DNA of 24,928 nucleotides. It comes from a virus. Shown piece by piece: positions 6,962-21,368 of this stretch (within the stretch, counting starts at the first letter, position 1; each line of letters begins with the position of its first letter). The DNA is taken from IMG/VR virus record IMGVR_UViG_3300005663_001084, positions 1-24,928 of that record; one strand, given 5' to 3'. The position numbers and the translations under genes were made by a program. The notes below the pieces were generated by a model, which saw only the letters and a list, made by a program, of their open reading frames with translations, was not told where the DNA came from and did no database searches.

Positions 6962-6991
6962 TATATCGGATTGGGCGGGCAATTTCCCCAA
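6962..6991 (-). promoter_or_regulatory. Repeat-family promoter, copy 1 (TTGGGG-N18-GATATACAG).
   Basis: Minus-strand reading is TTGGGGaaattgcccgCCCAATCCGATATACAGG. It shares the CCCAATCCGATA core with the seven other copies. Confidence 0.55.
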
Positions 6992-7012
6992 CTTTTCTGC
7001 GACCTTGCCGGT

Positions 7013-7042
7013 TTGACATTCGCCAAGGCGAGGAGGTATAAC
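7013..7042 (+). promoter_or_regulatory. Sigma70-like promoter TTGACA-N18-TATAAC for the plus-strand AdoMetDC-family gene. The ATG is 9 nt after the -10 box, so the leader is very short or absent.
   Basis: Read directly. The aggagg at 7031 lies inside the spacer and is too far from the ATG to serve as an SD. Confidence 0.5.
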
Positions 7043-7051
7043 GACTTGACC

Positions 7052-7441
7052 ATGGCTTACGGCATCGGACTACGTATCGAAGGGCACGACTGCGGGAACG
7101 CCGCGATCCTCCGCGACGAGGAGGCCGTCCAAGAACTGCTGGTGACCGCGATCCAGGTCGCAGACATGACCCTGCTGGCCGGGCCGTTCTGCACCGAAGA
7201 ACTGACTCGGGACATCGGCAAGGGTCCCGGCCTCACAGCCTGCGCGATCCTGTACGAGTCCCACGTTGTCATCCACACCTATCCGGAACAGCGGTGGTTC
7301 CTGTTCGAGATGACCACCTGCAAAGAGTTCGACTCGGTCCGTGTCGTCAATCTCCTGAGAGCCTGGGCCGACTGCAAGACGGTCACCGACTGCACCGTCG
7401 TGGGCCACATGTTCCCCGAACCCGTTGAAGCGAATGGCTGA
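7052..7441 (+). CDS. Pyruvoyl-dependent S-adenosylmethionine decarboxylase proenzyme family (SpeH/SpeD class 1b-like), 129 aa. The substrate could be AdoMet, arginine or ornithine.
   Basis: CAILYESHVVIHTYPE matches the AdoMetDC self-processing motif (L-x-ESH-[LV]-SIHTWPE), with the serinolysis site at Ser70. The length of ~130 aa fits the small bacterial/archaeal form. This is an internal ATG of track ORF 6869..7441. Confidence 0.85.
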   Translation: MAYGIGLRIEGHDCGNAAILRDEEAVQELLVTAIQVADMTLLAGPFCTEELTRDIGKGPGLTACAILYESHVVIHTYPEQRWFLFEMTTCKEFDSVRVVNLLRAWADCKTVTDCTVVGHMFPEPVEANG

Positions 7442-7703
7442 TCTCCGCGAAACCATGCGCCGCGTCATGTGCCCGCTCACCGAGCGTATGACACCCACAT
7501 CCGTCGTTGGGCTGGCCCGAGCACACAGGCTGGCCGTCTCGGACGCTGAGGTGGTTGTGGACGAATACGGCAAGGACAAGATCACGCTCTTCCTGACGCA
7601 GCCCACCGAAGACAAGTACATCCGGGCCTTCAAGCGCGACCTGCGTAAACGCGATCCCCAAGCCGGTCAGGTCACCGTCCGAAGCCCAGGCGCAAGAAGG
7701 TAA
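7434..7703 (+). CDS. Hypothetical protein of 89 aa, translationally coupled to the decarboxylase gene.
   Basis: The ATG at 7434 overlaps the upstream TGA as ATGGCTGA. Confidence 0.55.
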   Translation: MADLRETMRRVMCPLTERMTPTSVVGLARAHRLAVSDAEVVVDEYGKDKITLFLTQPTEDKYIRAFKRDLRKRDPQAGQVTVRSPGARR

Positions 7704-7708
7704 CCGCG

Positions 7709-9763
7709 CTACTTCGGTTTTTTGACCCTCGGGATATTCAGGTTCCCCGCGTGGTACTCCTCAGCCGCGATCAACATCGGTGCCCACTGGAGGTAGCCCG
7801 CCCGCGTGCGCGGGTCCTGAAAGAACTGCTTGTAGTCGCCGGGCTTGTACGCATCGACGTTGAACAGCCGGGACTCCGGAACGGTGACCGTGGTCCTGAG
7901 CGGGCTGTCGTCATCCCATCTGTACCGCCGAAACGACCGCCGCTCACGGAACCAGCGAAAGATGGCCTTCTTCGCCCAGGGCTGCCACTTGTCAATCTTG
8001 GCGATGTAGCCGGGACCTGGATTGCCGTACGGCTTGAAACGCTCATGCCGGTAGTCGCTCCGATTCCGCCAGTCACCGTCCAGGCGGTTGTTCTCTTTCT
8101 CCGCCTCCTTTTCCTGCCAGAGGCCGTCCTGGCCGATGACCACGCTGCCCGTCTTCAGCGATTCGTTGCACTTCCGGCGGTACGCCTCGAAGTCCGGACG
8201 CTCGCCCTCGTACAGCGTGTTGGAATCGTCGTAGACAAGTTCGAGGGCCTGCCCGAAACCTTCGGCACTCCAGAGCTTGACCGGAAGGTGCGGATGTAGA
8301 ACATCGGAGCGGTCGAACAGACCTTGGACGATCAGCGCGATCCGGTTGTAGTGCTTGACCCGGTCCTCGACTTCCTTGAGCGCCTCGTCGAAGTACACGG
8401 AGGTGGAGTTGAACGGCTCCCACTCGTTTTCCCTGAAGCTGCTATGGAAATGCGTCTCGAAGTACCCGTCGTACGGAGCCTTGTCGAGAATATCCCTCCG
8501 CTCTCTTATCTGAAATTTGTTGAGATTGTGGGAGCTTTTCCGCAACCGCTTCGGCATGTTCTCTTTGAGCCACTTCTTCCGCCCCACCAGATTCCGTTTA
8601 TGCGCAGCCTCAGCATCTGCGTGTTCCTTGCAGAGCGCCTTGAACTCACGGACCGGGATCATCTCCTCCACCTTGTCGAAGCTCATCTTCGCCATCATCG
8701 GTTCGGTCGGGTCGAAGATCTTCCCACTGGGAAACAGCATCAGCCCGAACTCCAGGTCGCACCCCATCCAGTAGACGCGCTCCCCATTTCGGATGTACAA
8801 GTAGGTTTTCTTGTCGGCGTTTTCCAACCCCATGTGGATAAATATCTTCTTCGGATCGCCGCCCCAGTCGCGCGCTTTCTTCTCCCGCCGAACTTTGAAC
8901 GACACGATGCAGCGAGGGAATGGGAAGACCCGGTTCAAGTTCTCCGGCTCGCACAGCCATTTGTCGAACTTGTCGAGGCTATCAAAATCCATCCCACCAA
9001 GCTGGTAGTTGAGCAAGCACTCCTCGTCCATGTATAGGCGGCGCTGCATCAGATACAGTTTCTCGGAGATGTCAGCAGGCTCGCCCTTCTGGATCTGTTT
9101 CACGTCTTCAGTGAGACCTGCGTAGATGCTGACGTTGAAGATCCGATCCTGAATGTCATCGACGCAGGATTTCATTGCGCCTGCCATGGCCTCAAGCGGA
9201 ACGGCCTCGGCCGACAACCACATCGCTAGGTTTTCATTGGCGCTCCTAATCTCGCTAAACAGTTTCGGAAGGTCCTCATCCTTTGCCTTGACCAGCGCAT
9301 TTTCGTACTTCTTGACGTTGTCGGTCCCGGAGAGCGTAACCAGGGCAGTGCTGGAAGACTCGCTGCGCTCTTCAATACCGATCCGGCTACTCACACCCAG
9401 CCGGGCCGTGAGGGCTTTCACTTCGGCCATCTTCTCTTCGACCAGAGCTTTGTACTTGTGGACATTCCTACCGATTACATCCTTGGGCTTGGGCTCGTGA
9501 CGCAGTTCATCGAAGAAGTCGTCGAAGTGAACCCGGCAGTGGCTCTGACCCTGGTGACCTCTCGGAGAATGAAGCTCGACGTAGTTGGACCCGATCTCTG
9601 TGATGCAACCGAGCCACTCGTACTCGTAATCTTCGTATTTGTCAGTCTCTTCGTTGTACCTACTCTTGGTGTGCTTCACCCAGTACCACTGACCGACCTC
9701 GGCACCACCTTCGGTGTCGAGGCGGTCAGTGACGGGATTGCGCTTGGCGACTTGCTTGGCCAC
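7709..9763 (-). CDS. Large hypothetical protein of 684 aa, Lys/Glu/Tyr/Trp-rich, with lower GC (~55%) than its neighbours.
   Basis: GTG start at 9763 with AAGGAAG 6 nt upstream, 1 nt after the TAG of the upstream gene. It converges on plus gene 7434..7703, with only 5 bp between the stops. Confidence 0.8.
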   Translation of the reverse strand: MAKQVAKRNPVTDRLDTEGGAEVGQWYWVKHTKSRYNEETDKYEDYEYEWLGCITEIGSNYVELHSPRGHQGQSHCRVHFDDFFDELRHEPKPKDVIGRNVHKYKALVEEKMAEVKALTARLGVSSRIGIEERSESSSTALVTLSGTDNVKKYENALVKAKDEDLPKLFSEIRSANENLAMWLSAEAVPLEAMAGAMKSCVDDIQDRIFNVSIYAGLTEDVKQIQKGEPADISEKLYLMQRRLYMDEECLLNYQLGGMDFDSLDKFDKWLCEPENLNRVFPFPRCIVSFKVRREKKARDWGGDPKKIFIHMGLENADKKTYLYIRNGERVYWMGCDLEFGLMLFPSGKIFDPTEPMMAKMSFDKVEEMIPVREFKALCKEHADAEAAHKRNLVGRKKWLKENMPKRLRKSSHNLNKFQIRERRDILDKAPYDGYFETHFHSSFRENEWEPFNSTSVYFDEALKEVEDRVKHYNRIALIVQGLFDRSDVLHPHLPVKLWSAEGFGQALELVYDDSNTLYEGERPDFEAYRRKCNESLKTGSVVIGQDGLWQEKEAEKENNRLDGDWRNRSDYRHERFKPYGNPGPGYIAKIDKWQPWAKKAIFRWFRERRSFRRYRWDDDSPLRTTVTVPESRLFNVDAYKPGDYKQFFQDPRTRAGYLQWAPMLIAAEEYHAGNLNIPRVKKPK

Positions 9764-9764
9764 G

Positions 9765-11234
9765 CTACGCTTCCTTGAACTCGACCGGGAAGATCTCCGG
9801 CCGCTCCAGTGCGATCATCACCAGCTTCGCGCCCAGGCGCGTGCAGGCGTTGTAGTACCCCTCCGACAGGTGGTCGCTCTCGAACTCGTGAGCCAACTCG
9901 TGGATCACCAAGTCGGTCACCTTCTCCAGGTTGTCCGGGAACGCCTGGAACCACGCCCGTCCCAGGCGTCGCAAGTTGAACCGCAGATGCTTGCTGCCGT
10001 AGCACGCACCGTAGTTCTGCGGGTCGCGTACAATGTCGACCTCCGGCTCGAACCCCAGGAGCGCTTCGCCAACACGCTTCGTGTAGGCAATGATGGCCGT
10101 CATCTCGGACGTGAGATTCTTGACCCTGATGTCATCTCCATCAGCAGAGAAGATGGCCTTGCTGGTCGGGAACAAGACCGAGGACGGCTCCATCGTCTCG
10201 AAGCGCTTGGCGTTGCCCCACTCTCCTGAACTGAGCGAGCCGCCCGCCAGGACCGAGAAGCCTTCCGACACGCCACGGCTGTTGGCCTCGGGGTCCTGTA
10301 CAGACCAACTGGCGATGTCGTCCCCGTGCCGCTTGTGGATGACCTTGTCGAACGCCTCGGCCTCGATGTTCTCGTCGGACGTGGCTGCCCGCACCCAGGC
10401 CGCGCCCGCATCGTCGTCTTCCAGTTCCTCGTGGAAGTTATTGACGATCTCGACGCGAAGTGCCTGAAGGTAGGACGGACTCACGCTGTCACGGTCGCGC
10501 GGCAGCGGGACCTTCTGCTGGACATCGACATGCCACTTGTCGTCGGGCAGGTCACAGACGGGGATGCCCAGTTCGTACAGACGCGGCGTGTCGCCCTCTT
10601 CAACCTCGTAGAGGACCACGCGCGTCTTGCGCCGGGTGCGACGCATATTGCCTTCATCGTCAGCAAGCTCCGTGGGGAGCGTGGCCGAGAACTCGCCCAC
10701 CCTCTCAAGTATGGAGAGAGTCTCGCCGTTGATGATCGTGTGTACGCCTTCCGGCTGGATCACCGTGAACAAGACTTCCAGGGCTTCGGCGACCTCGTCC
10801 TTGTTCATGTAAACGTCGCCCTGGAAGATCGTGCCTCGCTCCAGACCCACGGTGCGCTTAACGCGACGCTGGCCGTCGGCCTTGAATGAAACGGTGCCCG
10901 TCACGGTCTCGATGACGGCACTCTTACAAAGCGAAAGGACTTCCTTTTCGCCGATGCAGAACCGCCCGCGCTTGCGCGGATCGCCGCGCCTTGATGTCCT
11001 CCCGTACAGAGTGTAAGAAGCACTCAAGTCCTCAAACCCGCGCGGGTCGTTGTCCGTGACCCGAATGTGCGCGAGGCCACGAGACACGTGCTCGAACTCG
11101 ACAAGTACATCGGTCGCGTCCGTGTCCCACGCATTGCCCAAGAGTTCCAGCGGTAAGAACGCTGACCCCCTTCGCCGGGCAACCTGGGCCAGCCCGGCCT
11201 TGTCCACCTCAAACCACTCGTTCTTCTTCGCCAT
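9765..11234 (-). CDS. GHKL-type ATPase (HATPase_c_3 / Hsp90-MORC-like Bergerat fold) with a C-terminal HExxH zincin-like motif, 489 aa.
   Basis: N-box PLELLGNAWDTDA (ExxxNAxD), G1 box VTDNDPRGF and G2 box GRFCIGEKE are all present. HELAHEF lies near the C-terminus. ATG at 11234 is preceded by GGAGAG 6 nt upstream. Confidence 0.8.
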   Translation of the reverse strand: MAKKNEWFEVDKAGLAQVARRRGSAFLPLELLGNAWDTDATDVLVEFEHVSRGLAHIRVTDNDPRGFEDLSASYTLYGRTSRRGDPRKRGRFCIGEKEVLSLCKSAVIETVTGTVSFKADGQRRVKRTVGLERGTIFQGDVYMNKDEVAEALEVLFTVIQPEGVHTIINGETLSILERVGEFSATLPTELADDEGNMRRTRRKTRVVLYEVEEGDTPRLYELGIPVCDLPDDKWHVDVQQKVPLPRDRDSVSPSYLQALRVEIVNNFHEELEDDDAGAAWVRAATSDENIEAEAFDKVIHKRHGDDIASWSVQDPEANSRGVSEGFSVLAGGSLSSGEWGNAKRFETMEPSSVLFPTSKAIFSADGDDIRVKNLTSEMTAIIAYTKRVGEALLGFEPEVDIVRDPQNYGACYGSKHLRFNLRRLGRAWFQAFPDNLEKVTDLVIHELAHEFESDHLSEGYYNACTRLGAKLVMIALERPEIFPVEFKEA

Positions 11235-11317
11235 GCGCTTCTCTCCTGCAAGAAGACCATGATGAATCTTGGGAGGCAGGGTTCCCCGTCGGTTCCCTTC
11301 TCAACCTGTCCGAAAGT

Positions 11318-11346
11318 AGAGTACCACAGTTCTACAGATTTGTCAA
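11318..11346 (-). promoter_or_regulatory. Sigma70-like promoter TTGACA-N17-TACTCT upstream of the GHKL ATPase gene.
   Basis: Minus-strand reading is TTGACAaatctgtagaactgtggTACTCT. Confidence 0.45.
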
Positions 11347-11414
11347 TGATTTTCCATAACTTTTTATATGAGTCTCCACGGGGCGCACTACGCCACCCAC
11401 ATGGCTCTACCATG

Positions 11415-11444
11415 TATATCGGATTGGACCGGCTATTTCGCCAA
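11415..11444 (-). promoter_or_regulatory. Repeat-family promoter, copy 2 (TTGGCG-N18-GATATACATGG).
   Basis: Minus-strand reading is TTGGCGAAATAGCCGGTCCAATCCGATATACATGG. Confidence 0.55.
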
Positions 11445-11445
11445 G

Positions 11446-12135
11446 TTATTCGCCAGGGTTTTCCGGAGCGACCACAGGGGGTTTCTCAGGCGGAGCTTCC
11501 TTGGGATCTCCCGGGCTGGTCGCGGCCCGGTACGCAAGGTAGACGCCCAGGATCGCAGCCCCGATCCCACCAAGCCAGATCGGGTTGAGGAACCATGGCA
11601 CACCCAGCTTGCTGTACTTGTCGTCAGCCTTGGGATCGCCACCGTCGCCGGTTCCCTGGGACGGGATGCCCTGGCTCTGGTGGACCGGGTCCATCGACGG
11701 ACGCCAGCCTCTCATCATCTCCTGGTTGATCGTCTCCAGGCCCTTCAGCTTCACGTGGATACGCTCGTTGCCAACGTGAAGCTGAAGGTCTTTCTCAAAC
11801 TGCTTGATCTCACCTCGGATCTCGACGAAGACCTTCTCGTGCTCCGAGTCACTCATCCGTGATCCATTTTCGATCTCGCGGTCACGCTTCTCCAGCTTTT
11901 CTTCAAGGCGGTCCATCAGATCCTGGAGACGCTGGGCGACTCCGGAGATCTTCTTATCCAGGTCCTTACTCTCACTTTCGATGCGTGCGTAGAGCTTGCC
12001 AACTTCTTCGGTTATCTTCTTGCGGACATCGCGGTCCTCTTCCTCGCGCTCTCGACGTTCCTTGTCGATAGCCTCGCGAAGAGCCCGCTCCTTCCGCTCG
12101 ATCTCGTCTCGGCGTTCTCGTTCTTGTCCGTCCAT
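11446..12135 (-). CDS. Coiled-coil protein with a C-terminal transmembrane helix, 229 aa.
   Basis: ATG at 12135 (MDGQERERRDEIERKERALRE...). The sequence is charged and heptad-like for ~170 aa, then PWFLNPIWLGGIGAAILGVYLAY. The N-terminal R-rich extension of the track ORF is rejected. It has its own consensus promoter. Confidence 0.7.
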   Translation of the reverse strand: MDGQERERRDEIERKERALREAIDKERREREEEDRDVRKKITEEVGKLYARIESESKDLDKKISGVAQRLQDLMDRLEEKLEKRDREIENGSRMSDSEHEKVFVEIRGEIKQFEKDLQLHVGNERIHVKLKGLETINQEMMRGWRPSMDPVHQSQGIPSQGTGDGGDPKADDKYSKLGVPWFLNPIWLGGIGAAILGVYLAYRAATSPGDPKEAPPEKPPVVAPENPGE

Positions 12136-12176
12136 GGTTAGTCTCGCAGGACACAGTCGTCCCCGCCTCGGATTCG

Positions 12177-12205
12177 ATTGTAAACGAGATGGAGCCGCAC
12201 GCCAA
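12177..12205 (-). promoter_or_regulatory. Sigma70-like promoter TTGGCG-N17-TACAAT for gene 11446..12135.
   Basis: Minus-strand reading is TTGGCGtgcggctccatctcgttTACAAT. Confidence 0.55.
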
Positions 12206-12214
12206 CCGAAGAGA

Positions 12215-12415
12215 TTATGTTGCGTAAGTAAGACCTTGCTTTTTACGGTCGGCGTTGATCTTGGAAATCTCTTTGTGGCGCTGCCGACCCTCGGGAGTTT
12301 CCTTCCAGGGCGTGCATCCGCCAACGCACCAGTCCGTGTCGACCGCCAGCTTGAGGCTGGCTTTGGCAAGAGCCGCACGGGCCTCGTACCCTCCGAAGAG
12401 GGTGGAGTTGAGCAT
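12215..12415 (-). CDS. Small hypothetical protein of 66 aa.
   Basis: It is the only protein-like ORF in a 280-nt gap and has GC3-rich codons. There is no clear SD. Confidence 0.4.
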   Translation of the reverse strand: MLNSTLFGGYEARAALAKASLKLAVDTDWCVGGCTPWKETPEGRQRHKEISKINADRKKQGLTYAT

Positions 12416-12487
12416 TCACGTAGGCCGCAGACACCGTAGACAGCGAAGAAAATCTTCCCACGGTAGTCTGGCGGCCTGCGAGAGCAT

Positions 12488-12712
12488 TCAGTGATCGCCG
12501 TTCGCCGAGATAGCGCCGATCTGGCTCAAGACCGTCTCGACGGTATCGGCAACGATCCGGCGGACCGCCCGAGCCTGCTTGCGCGTCAAGTCGGGCTTGC
12601 CTTTGCTCGTGGTCTCACGACGCACGGTCGCAAGCGAAATCTTCTCGATCCTGCTCTGCTGGGCATCGTCGAAGACCGGTTTCCGTCCACGCCGCTTCTT
12701 CTTTTTCCGGGC
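12488..12712 (-). CDS. Small highly basic protein of 74 aa (MARKKKKRRGRKPVFDD...), probably nucleic-acid binding.
   Basis: ATG at 12712 is preceded by GGGGGGAAAG. An alternative start exists at 12748. Confidence 0.6.
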   Translation of the reverse strand, partial: ARKKKKRRGRKPVFDDAQQSRIEKISLATVRRETTSKGKPDLTRKQARAVRRIVADTVETVLSQIGAISANGDH

Positions 12713-12728
12713 CATAGCTTTCCCCCCT

Positions 12729-12765
12729 ACAGGTTTGTGCACATCCATGTGCAGGACATACCTGT
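12729..12765. promoter_or_regulatory. Nested palindrome in the leader of the basic-protein gene. It contains a perfect 16-bp TGCACATCCATGTGCA inside ACAGGT...ACCTGT.
   Basis: Read directly. It lies between the -10 box of repeat promoter copy 3 and the SD. Confidence 0.45.
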
Positions 12766-12795
12766 ATTATCGGATTGCGGGAGCAATTCCTTTAA
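12766..12795 (-). promoter_or_regulatory. Repeat-family promoter, copy 3 (TTAAAG-N18-GATAATACAGG).
   Basis: Minus-strand reading is GGAATTGCTCCCGCAATCCGATAATACAGG. Confidence 0.5.
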
Positions 12796-12824
12796 GGAAA
12801 AATGGTGTAAAAATCCTTTTCTTG

Positions 12825-13040
12825 CTACTTTCCGCCGCAGGCCCGGGCTGCGTTGGCCACCGTGACCACCTCACGGACCTTGCGAATCGCCACGGTCTGG
12901 TCGGCGCTCTCCGGCGTGTGGTCCCGGATAATCGTGGCGAACGTCTTCCCCGCGTCCCGGATCAACTTGTAGGCGACGATGTCTTCGTCGTCCGGCGGGT
13001 GGTGGGTGAACCAGTTGTCCAGCATCTCGTCAGTGATCAC
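12825..13040 (-). CDS. Small hypothetical protein of 71 aa (…DNWFTHHPPDDEDIVAYKLIRDAGK...).
   Basis: GTG start at 13040 with GGAGGAG 7 nt upstream. It overlaps the stop of the upstream gene as GTGA. Confidence 0.6.
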   Translation of the reverse strand: MITDEMLDNWFTHHPPDDEDIVAYKLIRDAGKTFATIIRDHTPESADQTVAIRKVREVVTVANAARACGGK

Positions 13041-14397: not shown

Positions 14398-14808
14398 TTA
14401 TCCTTTCAGAATGCCTCGATCCACCAGTTGCTGTAGGCCGTTGAAGCGCGGCGCAGGAACATCATCTCTCCAGATCCACTGCGTATGCTTCGTGGACTCC
14501 GGATTCTGCGGCAAAATCCCCAAGTACGGCTTCGACTGGAGGATCGCGCACACGAAATCGTTCTCGTAGTCGACGTAGGTCATCAACGGCCGGTCGATTT
14601 CGACCATGATACCTACCTCTTCCAGGACCTCGCGGATGCCGGTCTGCTCGATAGTCTCGGTTCCCTCGACATGACCACCGGGAAACTGCCACAAACCGTT
14701 GTACGGCTCGGCAATCCGCCTCGAAAGCAGGTGCTTCTCGGCCCTGAAGTCAACGATGCGTACCGCGACACTGACCGTTTTGCGTACGGGCGGAGGTTTC
14801 ATACTCAT
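14398..14808 (-). CDS. Nudix hydrolase, 136 aa.
   Basis: It contains a canonical Nudix box GHVEGTETIEQTGIREVLEEVGI (Gx5Ex7REUxEExGU). ATG at 14808 lies immediately after the -10 box of repeat promoter copy 4, so the mRNA is leaderless. Confidence 0.85.
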   Translation of the reverse strand: MSMKPPPVRKTVSVAVRIVDFRAEKHLLSRRIAEPYNGLWQFPGGHVEGTETIEQTGIREVLEEVGIMVEIDRPLMTYVDYENDFVCAILQSKPYLGILPQNPESTKHTQWIWRDDVPAPRFNGLQQLVDRGILKG

Positions 14809-14838
14809 TACATCGGATTGGGACGCCTAAATCGGCAG
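14809..14838 (-). promoter_or_regulatory. Repeat-family promoter, copy 4 (CTGCCG-N18-GATGTAATG).
   Basis: Minus-strand reading is CTGCCGATTTAGGCGTCCCAATCCGATGTAATGAGTATG. A second TGCCGAAAATAGCC half-copy lies about 20 nt further upstream. Confidence 0.5.
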
Positions 14839-14855
14839 GTTTTCTATGACCTGGG

Positions 14856-15137: not shown

Positions 15138-15170
15138 GACAGTATAACAGAGCCAAAAATTTCAGAAAAG
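15138..15170 (-). promoter_or_regulatory. Extended -10 promoter (TGtTATACT) for the Gly-rich protein gene.
   Basis: Minus-strand reading is ctctgTTATACTgtcgccATG. Confidence 0.4.
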
Positions 15171-15255
15171 GGGTGTCCCGGAATTTGTAAGACAGCCTGA
15201 GCCAACATGTTACAGAATTTCGACGCGGATTATTTCGGAATCGCTGAAATCTTTG

Positions 15256-15274
15256 ACCTGGGAATTTCCCAGGT
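15256..15274. other. Short hairpin CCTGGG-aattt-CCCAGG inside the long intergenic region.
   Basis: Read directly. Confidence 0.3.
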
Positions 15275-15316
15275 GCCTGGACGCGCTTGAGGAGTAAGTA
15301 AAGCGATAGGGGCGAC

Positions 15317-15395
15317 AAAGACCTTATTTACCTTGTCAACTAAGTTGAATCCTGGACAGGACTTGCGCCCACGAAAAGATACGGTAAGGTCTTTA
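15317..15395. repeat. Long-range inverted repeat AAAGACCTTAtttACC / GGTAAGGTCTTT enclosing a ~50-nt loop. It could be an ncRNA, attenuator or terminator structure downstream of gene 15427..15783.
   Basis: Read directly. It sits in a ~290-bp AT-richer non-coding stretch (15135..15426). Confidence 0.35.
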
Positions 15396-15426
15396 CGCCA
15401 CTTGGGGCCTTAACTGCGCCTCTTTC

Positions 15427-15783
15427 TCAGGCCGTCTGGCGGACACGTTCGACCAGGAAGTTCAGGACGCGCAGGAAGCCCGCCATGTCGGTCCCGGCCG
15501 GGTTTGGACCCTGGGACGGCGGCAGCATCTCGCGCGCCACGTTCAGGCAGACGCGCTTCATCTCCTGAACTGCTACGCCCTGCATCTCAGCCTTCAGCGG
15601 GCCGAGCGCCTCCTCCAACGAGTCGAGGTTGACCTGGGCTTCGTCCCGATCCTGGTCCGCCCCGTAAGCGTACAAGAACAGTTGGTCAAGCAGATCCTCA
15701 CCATCGGCCATTGCCATGGTCGGCCGCTCGGCTTCGTCGAAGAACTCTTCGATGCGCTCTTTCGTTGCGTCGTCAATAGGCAT
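15427..15783 (-). CDS. Acidic hypothetical protein of 118 aa.
   Basis: ATG at 15783. It overlaps the end of the upstream gene by 11 nt. Confidence 0.7.
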   Translation of the reverse strand: MPIDDATKERIEEFFDEAERPTMAMADGEDLLDQLFLYAYGADQDRDEAQVNLDSLEEALGPLKAEMQGVAVQEMKRVCLNVAREMLPPSQGPNPAGTDMAGFLRVLNFLVERVRQTA

Positions 15784-16324
15784 TGGACTCTACACTCCCT
15801 GCCTCAGGTCGAGGCACTTTTTTGTGCATGCACAAATGAATGTCCCTGATCGCCCTTCCGCTGGTCTCGGGGTACGCCATCGGAAGGACGCGCCTAACTT
15901 CCTCCTCTAACTTTTGTTGCCCTGGCTCACTATCCACGTGGATGGCGTACTCCAACCACGTTCCGTCTTCCCATAAGACGTAGAAACGTGCAAGGGTGTA
16001 ACTCTCTTTGCCAATAGCCTGACCTGGAGGTGGGCCAAGAATCCAGGTGATCGCAGTATTATTTAACTTTGATCGCGTGCACACTCGTGTCTTTCCTTGG
16101 TGTACCGCATTCCACGTATTTGCAAGGTCAGGCAACCGCTTATGCGCGTCGTTGTACGGGTCTTCAACACCAGACTGCTTCATGTAGAACCCAAGCTCAT
16201 TAGCCGTGGGAGGTGTTCTCCCCTCATCCATGTACTTGATCAGATACCCCAAAACGCGCGTGCACAAATCCGAAAGGTTTGGCAGAAGTTTCCGGTAAGC
16301 CTCAATGCTGGTCGGTTTAACCAC
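15773..16324 (-). CDS. Hypothetical protein of 183 aa.
   Basis: GTG start at 16324 with GGGGAG 4 nt upstream. It overlaps the upstream stop as GTGGTTAA. Confidence 0.7.
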   Translation of the reverse strand: MVKPTSIEAYRKLLPNLSDLCTRVLGYLIKYMDEGRTPPTANELGFYMKQSGVEDPYNDAHKRLPDLANTWNAVHQGKTRVCTRSKLNNTAITWILGPPPGQAIGKESYTLARFYVLWEDGTWLEYAIHVDSEPGQQKLEEEVRRVLPMAYPETSGRAIRDIHLCMHKKVPRPEAGSVESNAY

Positions 16325-16838
16325 GAGGCTCCCCGTTCGGCGTCTTGGTCAGATCAGGAATCATGTACGGGTTGATCCGGAACACGGACGTGTCGGCGAG
16401 GCCGAAGCGGACCTCCATGAGCGATTCGTTTTCCGGCGTGGGCTCTCCCGTCGTCGGCCGTAGCTGCCACCAGACCCGATCCCAGTAGCTGCCGTACTGA
16501 TCGTTGCCGCCCCACAGATCGTAGTGCCGGTTCCACAGCGCACCCATCCACATGTCGCGCATAGCTTCGTGACCGAACGCTTCCTCGGCGTCGTGGTGAC
16601 CGAAGACCGCGAGGATGAGCGCCTTGTTGTCGTGGAAGTTGTCAGACTCCACGATCCAGTAATTGTGCTGCCAGTCCATCCCGTCGACCCAGACCTCGCC
16701 GTAGTAGCCACCCTCCGGGTGACCGAAGCGTGCGACCGGGACGGCCGGGTTCTCGCGCGCGAGCCCATTGTACTTTTCGTACGCGGCCTCGATGAGGTTG
16801 TAGCCGTTGGTGAAGTGTGTAGCGAATCTGACGAGCAT
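16317..16838 (-). CDS. Trp/His-rich hypothetical protein of 173 aa.
   Basis: ATG at 16838 lies ~14 nt downstream of repeat promoter copy 5. Confidence 0.75.
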   Translation of the reverse strand: MLVRFATHFTNGYNLIEAAYEKYNGLARENPAVPVARFGHPEGGYYGEVWVDGMDWQHNYWIVESDNFHDNKALILAVFGHHDAEEAFGHEAMRDMWMGALWNRHYDLWGGNDQYGSYWDRVWWQLRPTTGEPTPENESLMEVRFGLADTSVFRINPYMIPDLTKTPNGEPRG

Positions 16839-16846
16839 GTAAGAGT

Positions 16847-16876
16847 CCCTACCCGTGTTATCGGATTGGGAAGGCT
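16847..16876 (-). promoter_or_regulatory. Repeat-family promoter, copy 5 (TTGCTG-N18-GATAACACGGG).
   Basis: Minus-strand reading is TTGCTGAAATAGCCTTCCCAATCCGATAACACGGG. It begins 3 nt after the TAA of the GNAT gene. Confidence 0.55.
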
Positions 16877-16889
16877 ATTTCAGCAATAA

Positions 16890-17327
16890 TTATTGGAGAT
16901 TCCACGAAACGGCCCACCCGTCGCCCGGTTTGCCTTCTCCGTCGACTTCGTGGTAGCTGGTGGCCGGAATTTCGTCGATACTCTCAAACGCGGTCGCGGA
17001 GGGCGTCCCAAAGGCCGAGACCAAGGCCCGGTACGACTTTTGAGACGTCACATCCGCTTCGACCGTCTTCACGCCCCACTCTTTCAACGACTGGGCTGCT
17101 TTTTGGGCCAGGAGCGTACCGTAGCCCCGGCCGCGATGTGCGGGCTTCACAAAAAGGTTGCCCAGGTGGGATTTCGTGTCGTCGAGAGTCTCAGTCGTCA
17201 CGTGGCCGACTTCTTCGCCCGCAAGGTAGGCGCGAAGAGTCAGACCGCCCCAGGGAGCCTTCATCACCTGGAAAGTGAGGCCCCGGGCTTCGTTGAGGAC
17301 GGTTCGGATGGCGCGTCGGGAATCCAT
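16890..17327 (-). CDS. GNAT family N-acetyltransferase, 145 aa.
   Basis: GNAT motif A is present: VKPAHRGRGYGTLLAQKA. ATG at 17327 lies 7 nt after a TATACT box, so the mRNA is leaderless. Confidence 0.85.
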   Translation of the reverse strand: MDSRRAIRTVLNEARGLTFQVMKAPWGGLTLRAYLAGEEVGHVTTETLDDTKSHLGNLFVKPAHRGRGYGTLLAQKAAQSLKEWGVKTVEADVTSQKSYRALVSAFGTPSATAFESIDEIPATSYHEVDGEGKPGDGWAVSWNLQ

Positions 17328-17334
17328 GGCGGAG

Positions 17335-17363
17335 AGTATACCCGGATCACCAGATCAGGTAAA
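17335..17363 (-). promoter_or_regulatory. Promoter TTTACC-N17-TATACT for the GNAT gene, giving a leaderless transcript.
   Basis: Minus-strand reading is TTTACCtgatctggtgatccgggTATACTctccgccATG. Confidence 0.4.
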
Positions 17364-17390
17364 ATAGGTCCCACCGAATGGCGTCGTCAG

Positions 17391-17669
17391 TCATTCTTCG
17401 TCATGCCCCACAGCCTGGAACTGGCGGTCGCGACAGTACACCCGAACCAAGCTGTCCCTGATAACTTCGCCCGCATGGTCTGTCCAACGAAAATGGCACT
17501 GGGCACACTCCCGAACGGGAATCGACACGATTAACTGCTGTGCGTCCTTACCGGAGCCCTGCTGAAAAATGTCCGGAGTCCACTCCGTCGAAACTTCAGC
17601 ACCGAGGCACTGCGGACAATGCAGCATCTCCTCATAATCCGCATTCGATAAATCAACTGGGTTATCCAC
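17391..17669 (-). CDS. Zinc-ribbon protein of ~92 aa (CPQC...CAQC).
   Basis: GTG start at 17669 with GGAGGAAG 4 nt upstream. It overlaps the upstream stop as GTGGATAA. The S/T-rich N-terminal extension of the track ORF is rejected. An alternative ATG exists at 17627. Confidence 0.55.
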   Translation of the reverse strand: MDNPVDLSNADYEEMLHCPQCLGAEVSTEWTPDIFQQGSGKDAQQLIVSIPVRECAQCHFRWTDHAGEVIRDSLVRVYCRDRQFQAVGHDEE

Positions 17670-18399
17670 GCTTCCTCCTCTTCGTCGGCTTGCGACGAAA
17701 ACTCCACTCGTCGAACCCGCGCTGCTTGATGCGGTCGTCGTTGCCGACCTCGCCCATATCGCGGTCGGCCATGCCAAGCACGCCGGACAGGTACATGTGG
17801 ATCTCCTGGCAGGCGGTATACGAGTCCTTGACCTTCATAAAGCCATAGTCTTTGAGTCGCGGATTGAGGATCAGCTTGCACTTGCTCTTCTTCGATGACC
17901 AACCGCTGAACCAGCCCGATAACCCCGCCTTATCTATGTGCAGGAAGCACGGCACGCGGTACCGCACGAACATGGGCAAGAGGAAGCCCCACGAGTTCAG
18001 ATCGAAGAAAGTTTTGAAGTCCACGTCGGAAATTCGCCGCCGCCAGGAGAACGCCCGACGGCTGTTGACATGTTCTCGTTCCTCCGGAAGAATCTCGTCC
18101 AAGTAGGCCATCAGCGGTTCCACTGTGTAGAAGAACTGCGTGGGATTATTTTCGATGGTGTCCAGGAGTTGCGTGACCTGGACATGCGGGTAGATCTCCC
18201 CGCAGAACCCCACAACGCGCCATTCGATCACGTAGTTCTTCTGCTTGTGCGAAGAACTGTGCGAGTAGAGCCGCAGGTGCCGCGCATCATTCAAGGTGAC
18301 GTTCACCTCGGATTTCTTGCGCTGGTAGACGCACGTCTTGTCGACGCCGTGCGCCAGGGCCGTGTCGTAGTAGTCGTGGAATTTCGAGATGATCAGCAT
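17662..18399 (-). CDS. Hypothetical protein of 245 aa.
   Basis: ATG at 18399 shares its A with the upstream TGA (TGATG). Confidence 0.75.
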   Translation of the reverse strand: MLIISKFHDYYDTALAHGVDKTCVYQRKKSEVNVTLNDARHLRLYSHSSSHKQKNYVIEWRVVGFCGEIYPHVQVTQLLDTIENNPTQFFYTVEPLMAYLDEILPEEREHVNSRRAFSWRRRISDVDFKTFFDLNSWGFLLPMFVRYRVPCFLHIDKAGLSGWFSGWSSKKSKCKLILNPRLKDYGFMKVKDSYTACQEIHMYLSGVLGMADRDMGEVGNDDRIKQRGFDEWSFRRKPTKRRKRG

Positions 18400-19103
18400 C
18401 AGGAGGGTGCGATTTGAAGCACATCCTCGACGCCGCTGCCGTCCTTCTTCTGGCGGCGGGTGACCAGCGCCATAATGGGCATTCCGAGGGCCTCTTGAAC
18501 CTCCGCAGCAAACTGACCGCGAGGTCCCTGCATGCCCACAGCAACCGGCCCGAACGGCTCTCCGATCAGCAGGACGGCCGAGTCATGGATCTTGGTCTTC
18601 TGCTCGTCAGTGATCTTCAAATCGTTGTGCACTTCGATCAGCAATCCCGTCGTCTGGTCGCCGGTCACGGGCGGATTGACCAGTTCGGGCTCGAACGGAA
18701 CGAACACGCCGTTGTGCCGGTCTCGGTTGGCCTGCATCTGATCAGCGGTGTATCCGATGATGAAAACACCCTCGACGTCGTCCATGTAAATGCCGTGCGG
18801 GATCACGGCGGTCAGCGGAGTCTTCGATCCGTCGGGAACGCCTTCCGGCCAGATGTAGCCGTACATGAACTCCAGATCTGGAGGGCATTTTGCGCTCGGC
18901 AGCTTGAAGGGACCGACGAAGCCCGGAAGCTGCTGCTCCAGCGGTGGAGCGAATGCGAAGTGCTCGTCGTCCTTGTACTTCTCCTGCAAGTCGGCCGCCG
19001 TTTGCTCCGGTGTACGGCCCCGGAGACGCTCAATATCTACCCGGCGTTCGTAGACACTATCCGACGAGGAGTACAGGCGAATGTAAAAAATACCGCGCAG
19101 CAT
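18399..19103 (-). CDS. Hypothetical protein of 234 aa.
   Basis: ATG at 19103, TGATG-coupled to the upstream gene. Confidence 0.75.
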   Translation of the reverse strand: MLRGIFYIRLYSSSDSVYERRVDIERLRGRTPEQTAADLQEKYKDDEHFAFAPPLEQQLPGFVGPFKLPSAKCPPDLEFMYGYIWPEGVPDGSKTPLTAVIPHGIYMDDVEGVFIIGYTADQMQANRDRHNGVFVPFEPELVNPPVTGDQTTGLLIEVHNDLKITDEQKTKIHDSAVLLIGEPFGPVAVGMQGPRGQFAAEVQEALGMPIMALVTRRQKKDGSGVEDVLQIAPS

Positions 19104-19423
19104 CAGAAACGTCTCCCGGTCGGCCTGTCCTCGTTTTTACACGGCAAACGGGAGACCGTGAACGTGTCGATGACCTTCCCGTCGCGGACGCGGGCGTAGC
19201 CCCAGCACTTGGTCGGACCCTCGGCATCGACGCAGGGCCACTCCCAGGTCCAGCACTCGTCCTGGTCGGTGAAAAACAGTGTGAAGAGGCACCAAACAGG
19301 CAGCATGAGCGGGTGCACGGTGTACACCCGGCGCATACGGCCGTTGGTCGCGGCCTCCAGTTTGACCTTAATCCCCAGGGCCTCGGGAGGAACCACCCCG
19401 AACTTTGGTTTCGTGATCTTCAT
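19103..19423 (-). CDS. Hypothetical protein of 106 aa, leaderless and first gene of an operon.
   Basis: ATG at 19423 lies 6 nt after the -10 box of repeat promoter copy 6. The track ORF extension MAILPPKSDNIG is simply the promoter read through. Confidence 0.7.
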   Translation of the reverse strand: MKITKPKFGVVPPEALGIKVKLEAATNGRMRRVYTVHPLMLPVWCLFTLFFTDQDECWTWEWPCVDAEGPTKCWGYARVRDGKVIDTFTVSRLPCKNEDRPTGRRF

Positions 19424-19429
19424 GCCTAT

Positions 19430-19459
19430 ATTATCGGATTTGGGAGGCAAAATAGCCAA
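19430..19459 (-). promoter_or_regulatory. Repeat-family promoter, copy 6 (TTGGCT-N18-GATAATATAGG).
   Basis: Minus-strand reading is TTGGCTATTTTGCCTCCCAAATCCGATAATATAGGCATG. Confidence 0.6.
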
Positions 19460-19470
19460 GTTATTTCAGG

Positions 19471-19495
19471 CTGGGGCGATCAAGTTCGACCCCAG
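19471..19495. other. Hairpin CTGGGG-N13-CCCCAG between gene 19586..19843 and promoter copy 6. It is a possible terminator or operator.
   Basis: Read directly. There is no U-tract. Confidence 0.3.
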
Positions 19496-19585
19496 AACTA
19501 CTAACTTTCCGCAGTTTTATGTCGTAATCCACGCCGGACCTTGTATTTCCCCGCCCAGCCTCGATGACGATTCCGCCGACCATTA

Positions 19586-19843
19586 TCAGGCCTCGTGCGG
19601 GTGGACGCCGGTCAACCCAATGAACAGTTCGATGGCGTCAGCAAGGATCTCGAATTCAATCTTTCTGCGCTCTTCCTGGTCGGCCTTGAAGTCCGTCTGG
19701 TCGGTGCTGACACGCGGCTGCTGGACAGCGCTGATGTTTTCCATGCACCGCTTGAACAGCTTCTCGGCCCGCCGGATCTCCGGGCTGTGCCCGTTGCCCA
19801 TGAAAATCTGGCGAGTCAACTCAGGAAGCTCCGGTGCGTCCAT
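19586..19843 (-). CDS. Hypothetical protein of 85 aa.
   Basis: ATG at 19843, TGATG-coupled to the upstream gene. Confidence 0.65.
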   Translation of the reverse strand: MDAPELPELTRQIFMGNGHSPEIRRAEKLFKRCMENISAVQQPRVSTDQTDFKADQEERRKIEFEILADAIELFIGLTGVHPHEA

Positions 19844-20124
19844 CAGAGGCTGTCCACGATTTCGTCGTGAACCTCGGCCGGGATCTGCTCAGTCACGCCC
19901 AACCGCTTGAAGGTGTTCCAGGCTTGGCGGCCCTCTTCGGAATGGTTAAGGATCTCAGTGCGGTGGCCGTACTCGCTTTCGCCATACTTGACTTCGACCC
20001 AGTCCAGGTACACGTGCGAGCGTTCAGTACAAAGCGCCCGCAGGTATTCGACGAAATGTGCCCGCTGGCCGTCGCCCTGGTCGCTCTCGGCCCAGCCCTC
20101 CTTGCTGCCGTCCGGCGCGACCAT
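19843..20124 (-). CDS. Hypothetical protein of 93 aa.
   Basis: ATG at 20124 with AGGAG 4 nt upstream. Confidence 0.7.
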   Translation of the reverse strand: MVAPDGSKEGWAESDQGDGQRAHFVEYLRALCTERSHVYLDWVEVKYGESEYGHRTEILNHSEEGRQAWNTFKRLGVTEQIPAEVHDEIVDSL

Positions 20125-20151
20125 GAAGCTCCTGTAGCGATTGACGCCGTC

Positions 20152-20262
20152 CTAAACGATCTCGGTGACGAGCATGCCTAATTCAACGGCCTGGGTACGG
20201 GCCTTGTCGAGTTGGGCACCGTGGGCCGTCACTACGATAGCGTGGTGGAGAACGTAGCTCAT
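20152..20262 (-). CDS. Leaderless micro-ORF of 36 aa (MSYVLHHAIVVTAHGAQLDKARTQAVELGMLVTEIV).
   Basis: ATG at 20262 lies 6 nt after the -10 box of repeat promoter copy 7. It is below the 60-aa cutoff of the track. Confidence 0.4.
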   Translation of the reverse strand: MSYVLHHAIVVTAHGAQLDKARTQAVELGMLVTEIV

Positions 20263-20268
20263 ACCTGT

Positions 20269-20298
20269 GTTATCGGATTGGGGCAGCTATATCTCTTG
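20269..20298 (-). promoter_or_regulatory. Repeat-family promoter, copy 7. The -35 box is degenerate and the -10 region is GATAACACAGG.
   Basis: Minus-strand reading is GAGATATAGCTGCCCCAATCCGATAACACAGGTATG. Confidence 0.45.
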
Positions 20299-20368
20299 GT
20301 AATTTTGAAAATTAGTAAACCGAACGGACCCTGACCACCTCCCCGTACTTCGAGGCCTTGTCCCGGGC

Positions 20369-20497
20369 CTATTCCTCGCAGTCCGCTTCGACCCGGTAAT
20401 CGCGAGTGTACTTCGAGTCGGCAGGCTTCACCGTGACCAGGAAGTGGTACCGGATATGCTGACAGTGGATGTCAAGATTGGTCAACGCTGCGGTCAT
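20369..20497 (-). CDS. Micro-ORF of 42 aa.
   Basis: ATG at 20497 with GGAGA 7 nt upstream. Confidence 0.4.
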   Translation of the reverse strand: MTAALTNLDIHCQHIRYHFLVTVKPADSKYTRDYRVEADCEE

Positions 20498-20557
20498 TTC
20501 TCTATCTCCAAGAAGATCGAAGTGTTCTCTCCAACGTACGCCACAACCACGTTGAAG

Positions 20558-20746
20558 TCAAAAAATTCGTCCGCAGTTTTCCTCAGCGACAGCTTGAGTC
20601 ATCTGCGCGCAAAGTTCTTCCTCGATAGTCGGGCGTGGGCGGACCCAACCCCAGAGCTTCTGGACGTGGACCCAGGAGCCCTTCCCGACGACGATCTCGT
20701 AAACCCTAGACAGGAAGAGGATGGCCCTGTCCTTGAACGTCGTCAC
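20558..20746 (-). CDS. Small hypothetical protein of 62 aa.
   Basis: GTG start at 20746 has no SD. It may be coupled to the upstream micro-ORF. Confidence 0.3.
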   Translation of the reverse strand: MTTFKDRAILFLSRVYEIVVGKGSWVHVQKLWGWVRPRPTIEEELCAQMTQAVAEENCGRIF

Positions 20747-20770
20747 GCAGTAGTAGATCTGAAAAGCGGA

Positions 20771-20845
20771 TCAGCCACAGTACTCTCCCAGCGCCAGCAT
20801 CGCAATGCCGATCAGAATCCAGACCCACCCGTAGCTGTCACTCAT
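20771..20845 (-). CDS. Hydrophobic micropeptide of 24 aa (MSDSYGWVWILIGIAMLALGEYCG), possibly a membrane peptide.
   Basis: Its ATG overlaps the TGA of the upstream Zn-ribbon gene as ATGA. GGAAG lies 5 nt upstream. Confidence 0.35.
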   Translation of the reverse strand: MSDSYGWVWILIGIAMLALGEYCG

Positions 20846-20994
20846 GGTTTCTTCCAGACCGAGGTCTTGAAGTAGCACTTACGCGAGCAGTAGATCCGAA
20901 TACCCCACTGCTGAATGCTGATACGCAGTTGCTTGCGCGTGAAGCTCTTCTTGCAGACCGGGCAGGTTTTGGTCTCTTCAATGGTAGTTGTCAT
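20842..20994 (-). CDS. Zinc-ribbon protein of 50 aa (CPVC...CSRKC).
   Basis: ATG at 20994 with GGAG 6 nt upstream, just after the TAA of gene 21009..21332. Confidence 0.5.
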   Translation of the reverse strand: MTTTIEETKTCPVCKKSFTRKQLRISIQQWGIRIYCSRKCYFKTSVWKKP

Positions 20995-21008
20995 CAGGTT
21001 CTCCTATT

Positions 21009-21332
21009 TTACTCGCGAGCCATCACACCCAACGCTTGCCATACCAGCTTTCCGATCTCGTTCTCAATCTCGTCTTTGATCCGCTCGAACAGGGGCTTCT
21101 GGTGCCGCCGTCCCCAGCGCCACGCCGTGCGGGCCTGCTGGTGAATACGCTTCTTCCTAATCCGCCGCCGTGCCTGCAACTGCGTCCGCTGAACGAAGTT
21201 CTCTGGTGGCACCCACAGCAGCGGCCGATGGAAACCATGCAGGATGTAGGACAACTCCCACACCCACCGGAAGCGGCTGGGGCAGTCGACCATAGGCCAC
21301 TCACGAGACTTCCATCCCCGGAGGTCATTCAT
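21009..21332 (-). CDS. Hypothetical basic protein of 107 aa, leaderless.
   Basis: ATG at 21332 lies 6 nt after the -10 box of repeat promoter copy 8. The track extension ...PQSDNIG is the promoter read through. Confidence 0.7.
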   Translation of the reverse strand: MNDLRGWKSREWPMVDCPSRFRWVWELSYILHGFHRPLLWVPPENFVQRTQLQARRRIRKKRIHQQARTAWRWGRRHQKPLFERIKDEIENEIGKLVWQALGVMARE

Positions 21333-21338
21333 ACCTAT

Positions 21339-21368
21339 ATTATCGGATTGCGGGGGCTGTTTCGGCAA
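21339..21368 (-). promoter_or_regulatory. Repeat-family promoter, copy 8 (TTGCCG-N18-GATAATATAGG).
   Basis: Minus-strand reading is TTGCCGAAACAGCCCCCGCAATCCGATAATATAGGTATG. Confidence 0.6.

Follow-up and report, generated by a model that had tools for sequence, protein, structure and literature searches.

The phage and its genes

The stretch analysed here (the window) comprises positions 1 to 24,928 of the IMG/VR record IMGVR_UViG_3300005663_001084. It contains eight minus-strand copies of an intergenic repeat of about 50 nt with the layout of a promoter. The repeat probably represents a promoter class specific to one phage lineage, with a -10 region that differs from that of the ordinary promoters nearby.

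The source is an uncultured tailed phage from a marine-sediment metagenome. It is assigned to the tailed phages because a head maturation protease and a Gp23-like major head protein are encoded downstream, beyond the window. The major head protein matches Pfam Gp23 and phrog_138. Positions 695-24928 of the window are 100% identical to contigs assembled from the marine-sediment runs SRR1555743 and SRR1555744. Positions 1-694 have no match in the other assemblies of the phage, and there a phage gene of 852 amino acids (aa) continues, without a break in frame, into the domain of an inosine-uridine nucleoside hydrolase, with 68% GC. This segment is probably foreign to the phage, the product of a chimeric assembly in the source contig.

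The genes are densely packed and nearly all on the minus strand, where they encode, among others, NUDIX, GNAT, PRAI-like, WbqC, GDP-mannose dehydratase, PolX-thumb-like and Acb2/Tad1-like proteins. The sole two plus-strand genes (7046-7703), for an AdoMet-decarboxylase-like protein (131 aa) and an 89-aa protein, are both kept in the related phage L022, described below. At 12825-13040 (-) lies the gene for a 71-aa protein with an Acb2/Tad1 hairpin domain (Pfam PF24729, E = 3.6e-9). This protein is a candidate anti-CBASS/anti-Thoeris sponge, and its gene is the final one of a NUDIX operon headed by the repeat. A 489-aa HATPase-like protein and a 684-aa protein are encoded as a conserved pair at 7709-11234 (-).

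The 684-aa protein is 44% identical to a protein of Mesorhizobium phage Cp1R7A-A1 and 39% identical to one of Erythrobacter phage vB_EliS-L02, a CbK-like siphovirus. By protein similarity, these two phages are the only cultured relatives found, apart from weaker matches to Flavobacterium and Tunturiibacter phages; the actinophage setting of the preliminary description is unsupported. A search of IMG/VR for relatives of the 684-aa protein found none, and a megablast search of 50,697 phage genomes with 16 kb of the sequence gave zero matches. The matches of the GDP-mannose dehydratase, at 60-65% identity, are scattered across many phyla and are thus uninformative on the host. No tRNA was found in a tRNA search.

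Detection of the repeat

The heptamer ATCCGAT is found at eight minus-strand places in the window, one in each copy of the repeat, and its two plus-strand occurrences are unrelated coding sequence. The copies were aligned on this anchor, and a 50-nt position weight matrix (PWM) was built from the eight window copies. They score 55-67 bits, and 34-58 bits when each copy is left out of the matrix in turn. The next site on either strand scores below 0 bits, and the maximum over 30 shuffled windows is 12.7 bits. The same repeat family was recovered by an independent repeat search without prior information. The repeat is real and far above chance.

The alignment and the scan of the window returned exactly the eight copies of the preliminary description, all in the orientation given there. 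All eight are co-oriented with the genes, and all eight lie in gaps between genes that had been called independently in the public collection. The length of about 35 bp first given to the element was too short, as it spans about 50 bp. A ninth copy is present at position 2655 of L021, 1.3 kb past the right end of the window, which is upstream in the direction of the genes. It scores 38.6 bits and has an ATG in the same place. No copy was found in 14 kb of downstream genes including those for the head protease and the major head protein. Pairwise identity among the copies is 60-77%, and long identical tracts are absent.

Homologues of the 489-aa protein identify two related phages, L022 (NCBI JAZHCL010454023.1; 78% amino-acid identity) and L023 (run SRR29093016; 72%). 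L112 was counted as part of the L023 phage because both are from sample SRR29093016. L022 contains three copies of the repeat (20-22 bits), all syntenic with window copies, and L112 contains three further copies. The two related phages thus have six copies, of which three are syntenic. The consensus varies among the three phages, while the copies within one phage are alike.

Anatomy of the element

Positions are numbered with the A of the ATG that follows five of the copies as +1. The shared consensus covers about 50 nt, from -47 to +3, and reads TC.aaaAaaaCTTGgcGAaATaGCC.cCCCAATCCGATAa.A.aGGTAtG. It consists of an A/T tract at about -44 to -38 that resembles an UP element, YTG at -36 to -34, GAAAT.GC at -31 to -24, the core ATCCGATA at -16 to -9, and GGTA at -3 to +1. 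The alignment is ungapped, so that every copy has an 18-bp spacer, within the 17 +/- 1 bp of sigma70 promoters.

Conservation was counted over 14 full copies from the three phages (the window phage, L022, and L023 with L112). C-14, C-13, G-12 and A-11 are invariant. A-16, T-15, T-10, A-9 and T-35 are each found in 13 of the 14 copies, and A+1 in 12. Orthologous copies diverge at about 30% of positions, yet retain ATCCGATA. In the -35 region, Y-36 is present in all 14 copies, T-35 in 13 as above, and G-34 in 11, and the final three positions are unconstrained. The -10 hexamer departs from TAnnnT: A-11 is invariant, but -12 is G in all 14 copies and T-7 is found in just five.

The boxes had been described as exactly 18 bp apart in every copy. 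This spacing is retained in the ungapped register, but the literal boxes are less regular. A literal TTG is found in five of the eight window copies, the other three having CCAAGA, CTGCCG and CTTAAA. A literal GATAAT is found in three, the others having GATAAC (two), GATATA (two) and GATGTA (one). The conserved unit is thus ATCCGATA rather than GATAAT, and T-7 is not part of it.

The layout, with its 18-bp spacer and A at -11, has sigma70-family promoter geometry, and the copies head groups of minus-strand genes, in agreement with the promoter-like, gene-partitioning role first proposed for them. From this geometry we infer, with considerable confidence, that the repeat is a promoter. No consensus RNA structure or covariation was found among the copies, and an Rfam search of the element matched no family. 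In folds of -95 to -25, upstream hairpins have z-scores from -1.4 to +1.0, not beyond chance, and a simple terminator scan of 6000-24928 found none adjoining any copy.

Canonical promoter-like sites in the same region

Seven canonical sites of the type TTGACA-N17/18-TAnnnT share the region with the repeat. T-7 is present in six of the seven, and five of the seven are conserved in L022 and/or L023. At 17335..17363 (-), TTTACC-N17-TATACT precedes the ATG of a GNAT acetyltransferase gene at 17327, 7 nt past the box. At 15141..15169 (-), an extended -10 site, TGTTATACT, has the ATG at 15134 placed 6 nt past the box; this ATG opens an uncalled Gly-rich 92-codon open reading frame (ORF) (14856-15134, -) in a 618-nt gap without called genes. 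Both TATACT variants, with N7 and N6 before the ATG, had been reported in the preliminary description and are real. The ATG at 17327 is a leaderless candidate of the ordinary promoter class.

At 12177..12205 (-), TTGGCG-N17-TACAAT stands before a 229-aa gene and is kept in L022 and L023. TTGACA-N17-TACTCT at 11318..11346 (-) stands before the 489-aa HATPase-like gene; its -10 box is TAGACT in L022 and TAAGGT in L023. TTGACA-N18-CATACT at 4346..4375 (-) stands before a 555-aa gene and is kept in L022. The seventh site reads TTGACA-17-TATTGT. On the plus strand (7013..7042), TTGACA-N18-TATAAC belongs to the AdoMet_dc operon and is kept in L022. The ATG at 7052 lies 9 nt past its box, and the TTG at 7046 chosen by the gene caller sits 3 nt past the -10 box. 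The ATG at 7052 is the likelier start of the AdoMet-decarboxylase-like gene.

These sites are what a housekeeping-type promoter looks like in this phage. The repeat differs from them in three ways: -12 is G and not T, -7 shows no preference, and the invariant bases at -14/-13 are CC, the place of TG in an extended -10. The repeat is probably a promoter class apart from the ordinary promoters nearby, because it departs from them at the positions where a primary sigma reads the -10 region, while the canonical sites keep TAnnnT.

Gene starts at the eight copies

All eight copies are on the minus strand and are described here from the right end of the window. The positions first listed for them mark the last base of the -10 box, with 16847 a slip for 16857.

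Copy 1 (21330..21379; 66.9 bits) reads TTGCCG-N18-GATAAT-ATAGGT-ATG. Its ATG at 21332 is in frame with ORF 21009-21332 (107 aa) and extends the gene by 13 codons over the called start at 21293. Copy 2 (20260..20309; 63.9 bits) has CCAAGA in place of TTG and a GATAAC box. Its ATG at 20262 opens a 36-codon ORF (20262-20152) before a gene at 20124 that is led by a Shine-Dalgarno (SD) sequence. The gap 20842-20124 contains uncalled small ORFs, for example 20558-20746. Copy 3 (copy 19439; 19421..19470; 58.5 bits) reads TTGGCT-N18-GATAAT-ATAGGC-ATG, and its ATG at 19423 is the start that the gene caller of the collection picked independently for a 106-aa protein. The entire 37-nt gap is occupied by the motif, so that an SD is impossible before 19423.

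Copy 4 (copy 16866; 16848..16897; 65.1 bits) has a GATAAC box ending at 16857. The leader, from the predicted +1 at 16850 to the gene start at 16838, is 12 nt long. Copy 5 (14800..14849; 56.1 bits) has the boxes CTGCCG and GATGTA, and its ATG at 14802 (+1) heads an operon encoding NUDIX, PRAI-like, 208-aa and Acb2/Tad1-like proteins (Pfam). This ATG is in frame with the NUDIX gene, and the called ATG at 14808 falls within the -10 region. Copy 6 (copy 12775; 12757..12806; 55.0 bits) has CTTAAA and GATAAT boxes, and its ATG at 12759 opens merely a 10-codon ORF, the true gene start being 12715 or 12748.

Copy 7 (copy 11424; 11406..11455; 57.2 bits) is an orphan. Its leader of about 174 nt includes the canonical promoter at 11346-11318 and runs to the 489-aa gene at 11234. 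Copy 8 (copy 6971; 6953..7002; 56.9 bits) is orthologous to the L022 copy 8092. Its leader of 19 nt contains AGGAGG and ends at the ATG at 6936 of the gene for a PolX-thumb-like protein (184 aa). Copy 8 lies in a divergent gap, back to back with the canonical TTGACA-N18-TATAAC promoter of the plus-strand genes and exactly where the minus-strand gene train resumes after these two genes.

An ATG at +1, 6 nt past the box, is thus found in five of the eight window copies (21332, 20262, 19423, 14802 and 12759). Five was also the number in the preliminary description, but its fifth example, 11415 (GATATACATGG), was wrong, and copy 12775 was missed. The ATG at 11415 is 1 nt past the box and opens a 129-codon ORF that overlaps the 489-aa gene and has no coding signature. 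None of the five +1 ATGs has an SD, which is present in about half of the other genes. The remaining three copies (16866, 6971 and 11424) have the leaders of 12, 19 and about 174 nt described above. The motif also corrects start codons, to 21332 instead of 21293 and to 14802 instead of 14808. The SDNIGM peptides, already attributed to read-through of the motif, are present in ORFs 19103-19459 and 21009-21422, and these read-through ORFs are removed.

In half of the copies, the start site is probably at the ATG or adjoins it. Of the eight copies, three or four plausibly head a real leaderless gene (21332, 19423, 14802 and, as the fourth, the 36-codon ORF at 20262). The original proposal of leaderless genes is thus plausible for several ATGs at the expected start, but not for the element as a whole, given the three copies with leaders. 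In two cases, 12727-12759 (-) in the window and 1957-1986 in L112, the +1 ATG opens an ORF of only 9-10 codons, which overlaps or adjoins the true start of the gene that follows. Such ORFs could be left over from cassette exchange, or they could be leaderless upstream ORFs that are coupled to the start behind them.

Leaderless units are known from Actinobacteria, Deinococcus and Caulobacter (PMC3898074, PMC4007540). As in those units, the -10 box here ends 6-7 nt before the ATG and no SD is present, and the two ordinary TATACT promoters of the window (15134 and 17327) have the same arrangement. In those units, however, the -10 box is TAnnnT, and here the leaderless genes that appear real are confined to the three or four copies named. 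A comparable arrangement is observed in L077 (Ga0306921_10003423), a distant relative. Five units, at 356, 3793, 5170, 7711 and 10001, read A-tract-CTTGCGC-N17-(C/T)AtagT-N6-ATGACAACAAC. Their -10 is canonical, their first four codons are conserved, and one of them heads a homologue of the 489-aa gene. They look like leaderless promoter cassettes, which would therefore recur in phages sharing the 489-aa HATPase-like gene. Leaderless starts at about half of the copies are plausible in this phage and its host, because the ordinary promoters (15134, 17327 and the plus-strand TATAAC) and the L077 units share the habit.

Distribution and cassette exchange

Relatives of the 489-aa HATPase-like protein number more than 550 in JGI metagenome contigs (2-485 kb) of soil, sediment and water origin. 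No motif match above 17 bits was found in 80 metagenome loci and five contigs with the 489-aa gene (914 kb, from more distant phages). The motif is therefore lineage-specific, and the 489-aa gene is too widespread to define relatives. A search of IMG/VR with the motif pattern gave 13 single matches, which lie in unrelated AT-rich contigs and were dismissed as chance. The same pattern had zero matches in the GTDB genomes.

Two indels adjoin the motif. The first is window 12825-12477, containing the motif and a 75-aa gene, which is missing in L023. The second is a 93-aa gene of L022 (3221-3480), located between the motif and a canonical promoter, which is missing in the window. Its absence leaves copy 11424 orphaned, in tandem with the canonical promoter. 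The motif thus marks sites of gene-cassette exchange between relatives.

Comparison with known promoter systems

For phages that cannot be cultured, repeated phage-specific promoters offer the main access to the transcription programme. Phage-specific promoter classes are a kind already known, to which the motif would add a further member. The closest described systems are the promoter-early stem-loop (PeSL) cassettes of T4-type phages (Arbiol et al. 2010, PMC2839356; Comeau et al. 2014, PMC4122927). These are repeated promoters between small variable ORFs, and they mediate modular shuffling (PMC2839356, PMC4122927). The likeness is considerable. In both cases, phage-specific promoter cassettes with an AT-rich upstream tract are repeated in plastic regions, between small accessory ORFs, and seldom occur in structural modules. 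Both adjoin indels or replacements between close relatives, of which there are two cases here, and in both the consensus varies from phage pair to phage pair. The differences are also clear. PeSL cassettes have a terminator stem-loop just upstream, which is lacking here. They have near-consensus sigma70 promoters (TTGACA/TAYWAT) followed by an SD, whereas the element here has the -10 ATCCGATA without T-7, and half of its copies have an ATG at +1. PeSL cassettes belong to T4-type phages, and a T4-type affiliation of the phage analysed here is at most tentative: its major head protein matches Gp23, and the only cultured relatives found by protein similarity are CbK-like siphoviruses and other large phages.

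Promoter classes that are read by phage factors at different times of infection are also well known. Examples are the T4 middle promoters read with MotA/AsiA, the T4 late promoters read with gp55, and the SPO1 classes read with gp28 and gp33/34. The element is similar to these in being a non-canonical conserved motif class that is limited to one gene set and stands amid host-type promoters. It differs from T4 middle promoters in lacking the MotA box (TGCTT at -30), as positions -31 to -23 read GAAATAGCC, and TAnnnT is absent. It differs from T4 late promoters in lacking TATAAATA.

The third class compared is that of the group 3 factor sigma28 (FliA/SigD), whose promoters have TAAAG at -36 to -30 and GCCGATAA at -15 to -8 (PMC12784957). 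TCCGATA(A/T) at -15 to -8 of the element matches GCCGATAA at seven of eight positions, in the same register relative to the predicted +1. The invariant CCGA at -14 to -11 corresponds to the sigma28-specific bases, and T-7 is not required in either case. The mismatch is T in place of G-15. The -35 region is YTG(S)(S), which is sigma70-like, instead of the TAAAG(TTT) that sigma28 promoters have some 11 bp before the -10 element. Positions -36 to -30 read YTGSSSA, with TTAAAGG in copy 12775 alone, and the nearest AAAT is 3 bp too close. The element is not a member of the T4 middle, T4 late or sigma28 regulon, because the defining feature of each was lacking.

Several other recognition systems were considered and rejected. 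For archaeal TATA/BRE (B recognition element) promoters, the blocks fit bacterial -35/-10 spacing instead (A/T block at -30 to -27, YTG at -36 to -34), and the SD sequences and canonical TTGACA/TAnnnT sites in the region also rule them out. The spacing is 3 bp too short for extracytoplasmic function (ECF)-type promoters (AAC..CGT). The registers do not fit sigma54 (GG-24/GC-12) or SigB/F (GTTT..GGGTAT). CcrM GANTC and CtrA TTAA-N7-TTAA sites are not consistently present in the copies.

Candidate readers of the element

We consider the chances about even that the element is a lineage-specific promoter class read via a dedicated specificity factor. Such a factor had been suspected from the conserved core, and the core does point that way, because CCGA at -14 to -11 is conserved instead of T-12/T-7, with canonical promoters alongside. 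The dedicated factor would be a sigma, either alternative or encoded by the phage, whose -10 preference is like that of sigma28, or else a phage-modified host polymerase; an unaided primary sigma would be a less likely reader. A-11 would sit where sigma70-family factors nucleate melting, and transcription would begin at the +1 A or 1-3 nt from it. An ATG at +1 would make the mRNA leaderless, or almost so. After an exchange of the cassette downstream, the same promoter would feed a short SD-containing leader.

The copies head groups of small accessory and anti-defence genes and have no counterpart in the head module, which would suggest a regulon of the early or middle phase. A class of this timing, as originally proposed, is therefore reasonable, but its dominance was not shown, with at least seven canonical sites present. 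The motif would define a regulon of small accessory genes, including the Acb2/Tad1-like anti-defence gene, in an uncultured sediment phage. Its -10 region is closer to the group 3 sigma element than to the housekeeping one, which gives a testable prediction on how RNA polymerase (RNAP) is directed in this lineage.

Several points weigh against a dedicated factor, and most of them fit a simpler view, in which the copies are plain early promoters of the host primary sigma and the extra conserved bases are read by nothing special. YTG at -36 to -34, the 18-bp spacer and the upstream A-tract are features of a primary-sigma promoter. A-11 and the AT-rich -10 region agree with it, and GATAAT matches TATAAT at five of six positions. 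The genes served (Acb2/Tad1-like, NUDIX) look immediate-early, and their reader would therefore be the host polymerase in unmodified form, except if the dedicated factor were a sigma of the host. No gene for a sigma, an RNAP or a MotA/AsiA-like protein was found in the roughly 60 kb readable of the incomplete phage genome, where about 45 proteins were searched against Pfam, PHROGs, NCBIfam and PDB sequences.

The extra bases might then persist by descent from one cassette and homogenisation by recombination, as proposed for the T4-type PeSL. The two promoter-adjoining indels among three relatives resemble PeSL-mediated shuffling (PMC4122927). Alternatively, the extra bases might tune promoter strength via the spacer, the discriminator or the UP element. 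The likeness of copies within a genome could likewise come partly from cassette recombination and not from selection by a reader. It also counts against a dedicated factor that the preference of the host primary sigma is a prediction from the canonical phage sites, and promoter activity a prediction from geometry.

Plain host-sigma promoters are nevertheless an unlikely explanation of the element as it stands. T-7 is free and -12 is always G, while TAnnnT is retained at the canonical sites of this DNA. The invariant bases at -16 to -9 outlast the ortholog divergence of about 30%, which argues for selection and not homogenisation. The absence of long identical tracts between the copies, with their 60-77% pairwise identity, is also contrary to homogenisation.

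It is distinctly unlikely, though the -10 region resembles that of sigma28, that the motif is read by a sigma28/FliA-class sigma, be it the flagellar sigma of the host or a phage homologue with altered -35 preference. If true, a CbK-related phage would express its accessory and anti-defence genes in dependence on the motile state of the host. 'Lytic deferment' based on CtrA, as proposed for flagellotropic and pilitropic phages of alphaproteobacteria (PMC9437464), would be a parallel.

The main role of the core could also be that of an operator, bound by a repressor or activator of the phage, any promoter being secondary. The stoperators of Cluster A mycobacteriophages are such sites, and they are asymmetric and oriented with transcription. 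The core here is likewise asymmetric, strictly co-oriented with transcription and restricted to intergenic DNA. However, each copy has the full promoter geometry, with A-tract, YTG and a fixed distance to the ATG or A, which a pure operator would not need, and the window showed no gene for a repressor, an integrase or any other lysogeny function. This makes an operator very improbable. The 183-aa product of 15773-16324 resembles a possible winged-helix protein by eye, and Pfam, NCBIfam and PDB sequence searches with it returned nothing.

Scarcely to be expected, too, is a promoter of a phage-encoded non-sigma RNAP, either single-subunit (T7/N4-like) or other, in which about -18 to +3 would serve for recognition and melting. 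The unbroken high information at -17 to -9, together with GGTA at -3 to +1, and a consensus that differs between the three phages with copies alike within each would agree with it. For a single-subunit enzyme, about 20 contiguous bp without a -35 are expected, but conservation extends over -47 to -23 with sigma-type -35 spacing. The invariant A-11, which is 6 nt plus a hexamer upstream of +1, suits melting by the sigma family, and the readable part of the genome, incomplete as it is, contains no RNAP gene.

Least credible of all is an element without promoter function, be it a repeat for recombination or packaging or a structured RNA such as a processing or antitermination site: although motif-adjoining cassettes are gained and lost between relatives and read-through would transcribe all copies in the sense orientation, the copies have neither RNA structure, covariation, an Rfam family nor hairpins beyond chance, they are dispersed at gene starts unlike clustered iterons or pac/cos sites, and the fixed -35/-10/ATG geometry would be left unexplained.

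Other repeated and regulatory sequences

A textbook intrinsic terminator is present at 5784-5815 (-), after a 128-aa gene, and consists of GGGGACCTCGGCCGGGGTCCCC followed by TTTTTCTTT. It fell outside the span of the terminator scan. L022 has a similar hairpin and T-run at the matching place.

L024 (Ga0214473_10002227) contains, at 1500-8500, 12 copies of a different element of about 70 nt upstream of SD-led small genes. It consists of GTGCATCCTGCA, a variable hairpin and then TCAAGGTGCATGTCGCACC, and resembles a promoter/stem-loop cassette. In Mesorhizobium phage Cp1R7A-A1 (L001, MT188704.1), GG(T/A)TGAGTGCAG abuts the ATG of at least five genes; these start-associated sites are at 20728, 20905, 21109, 21919 and 26306.

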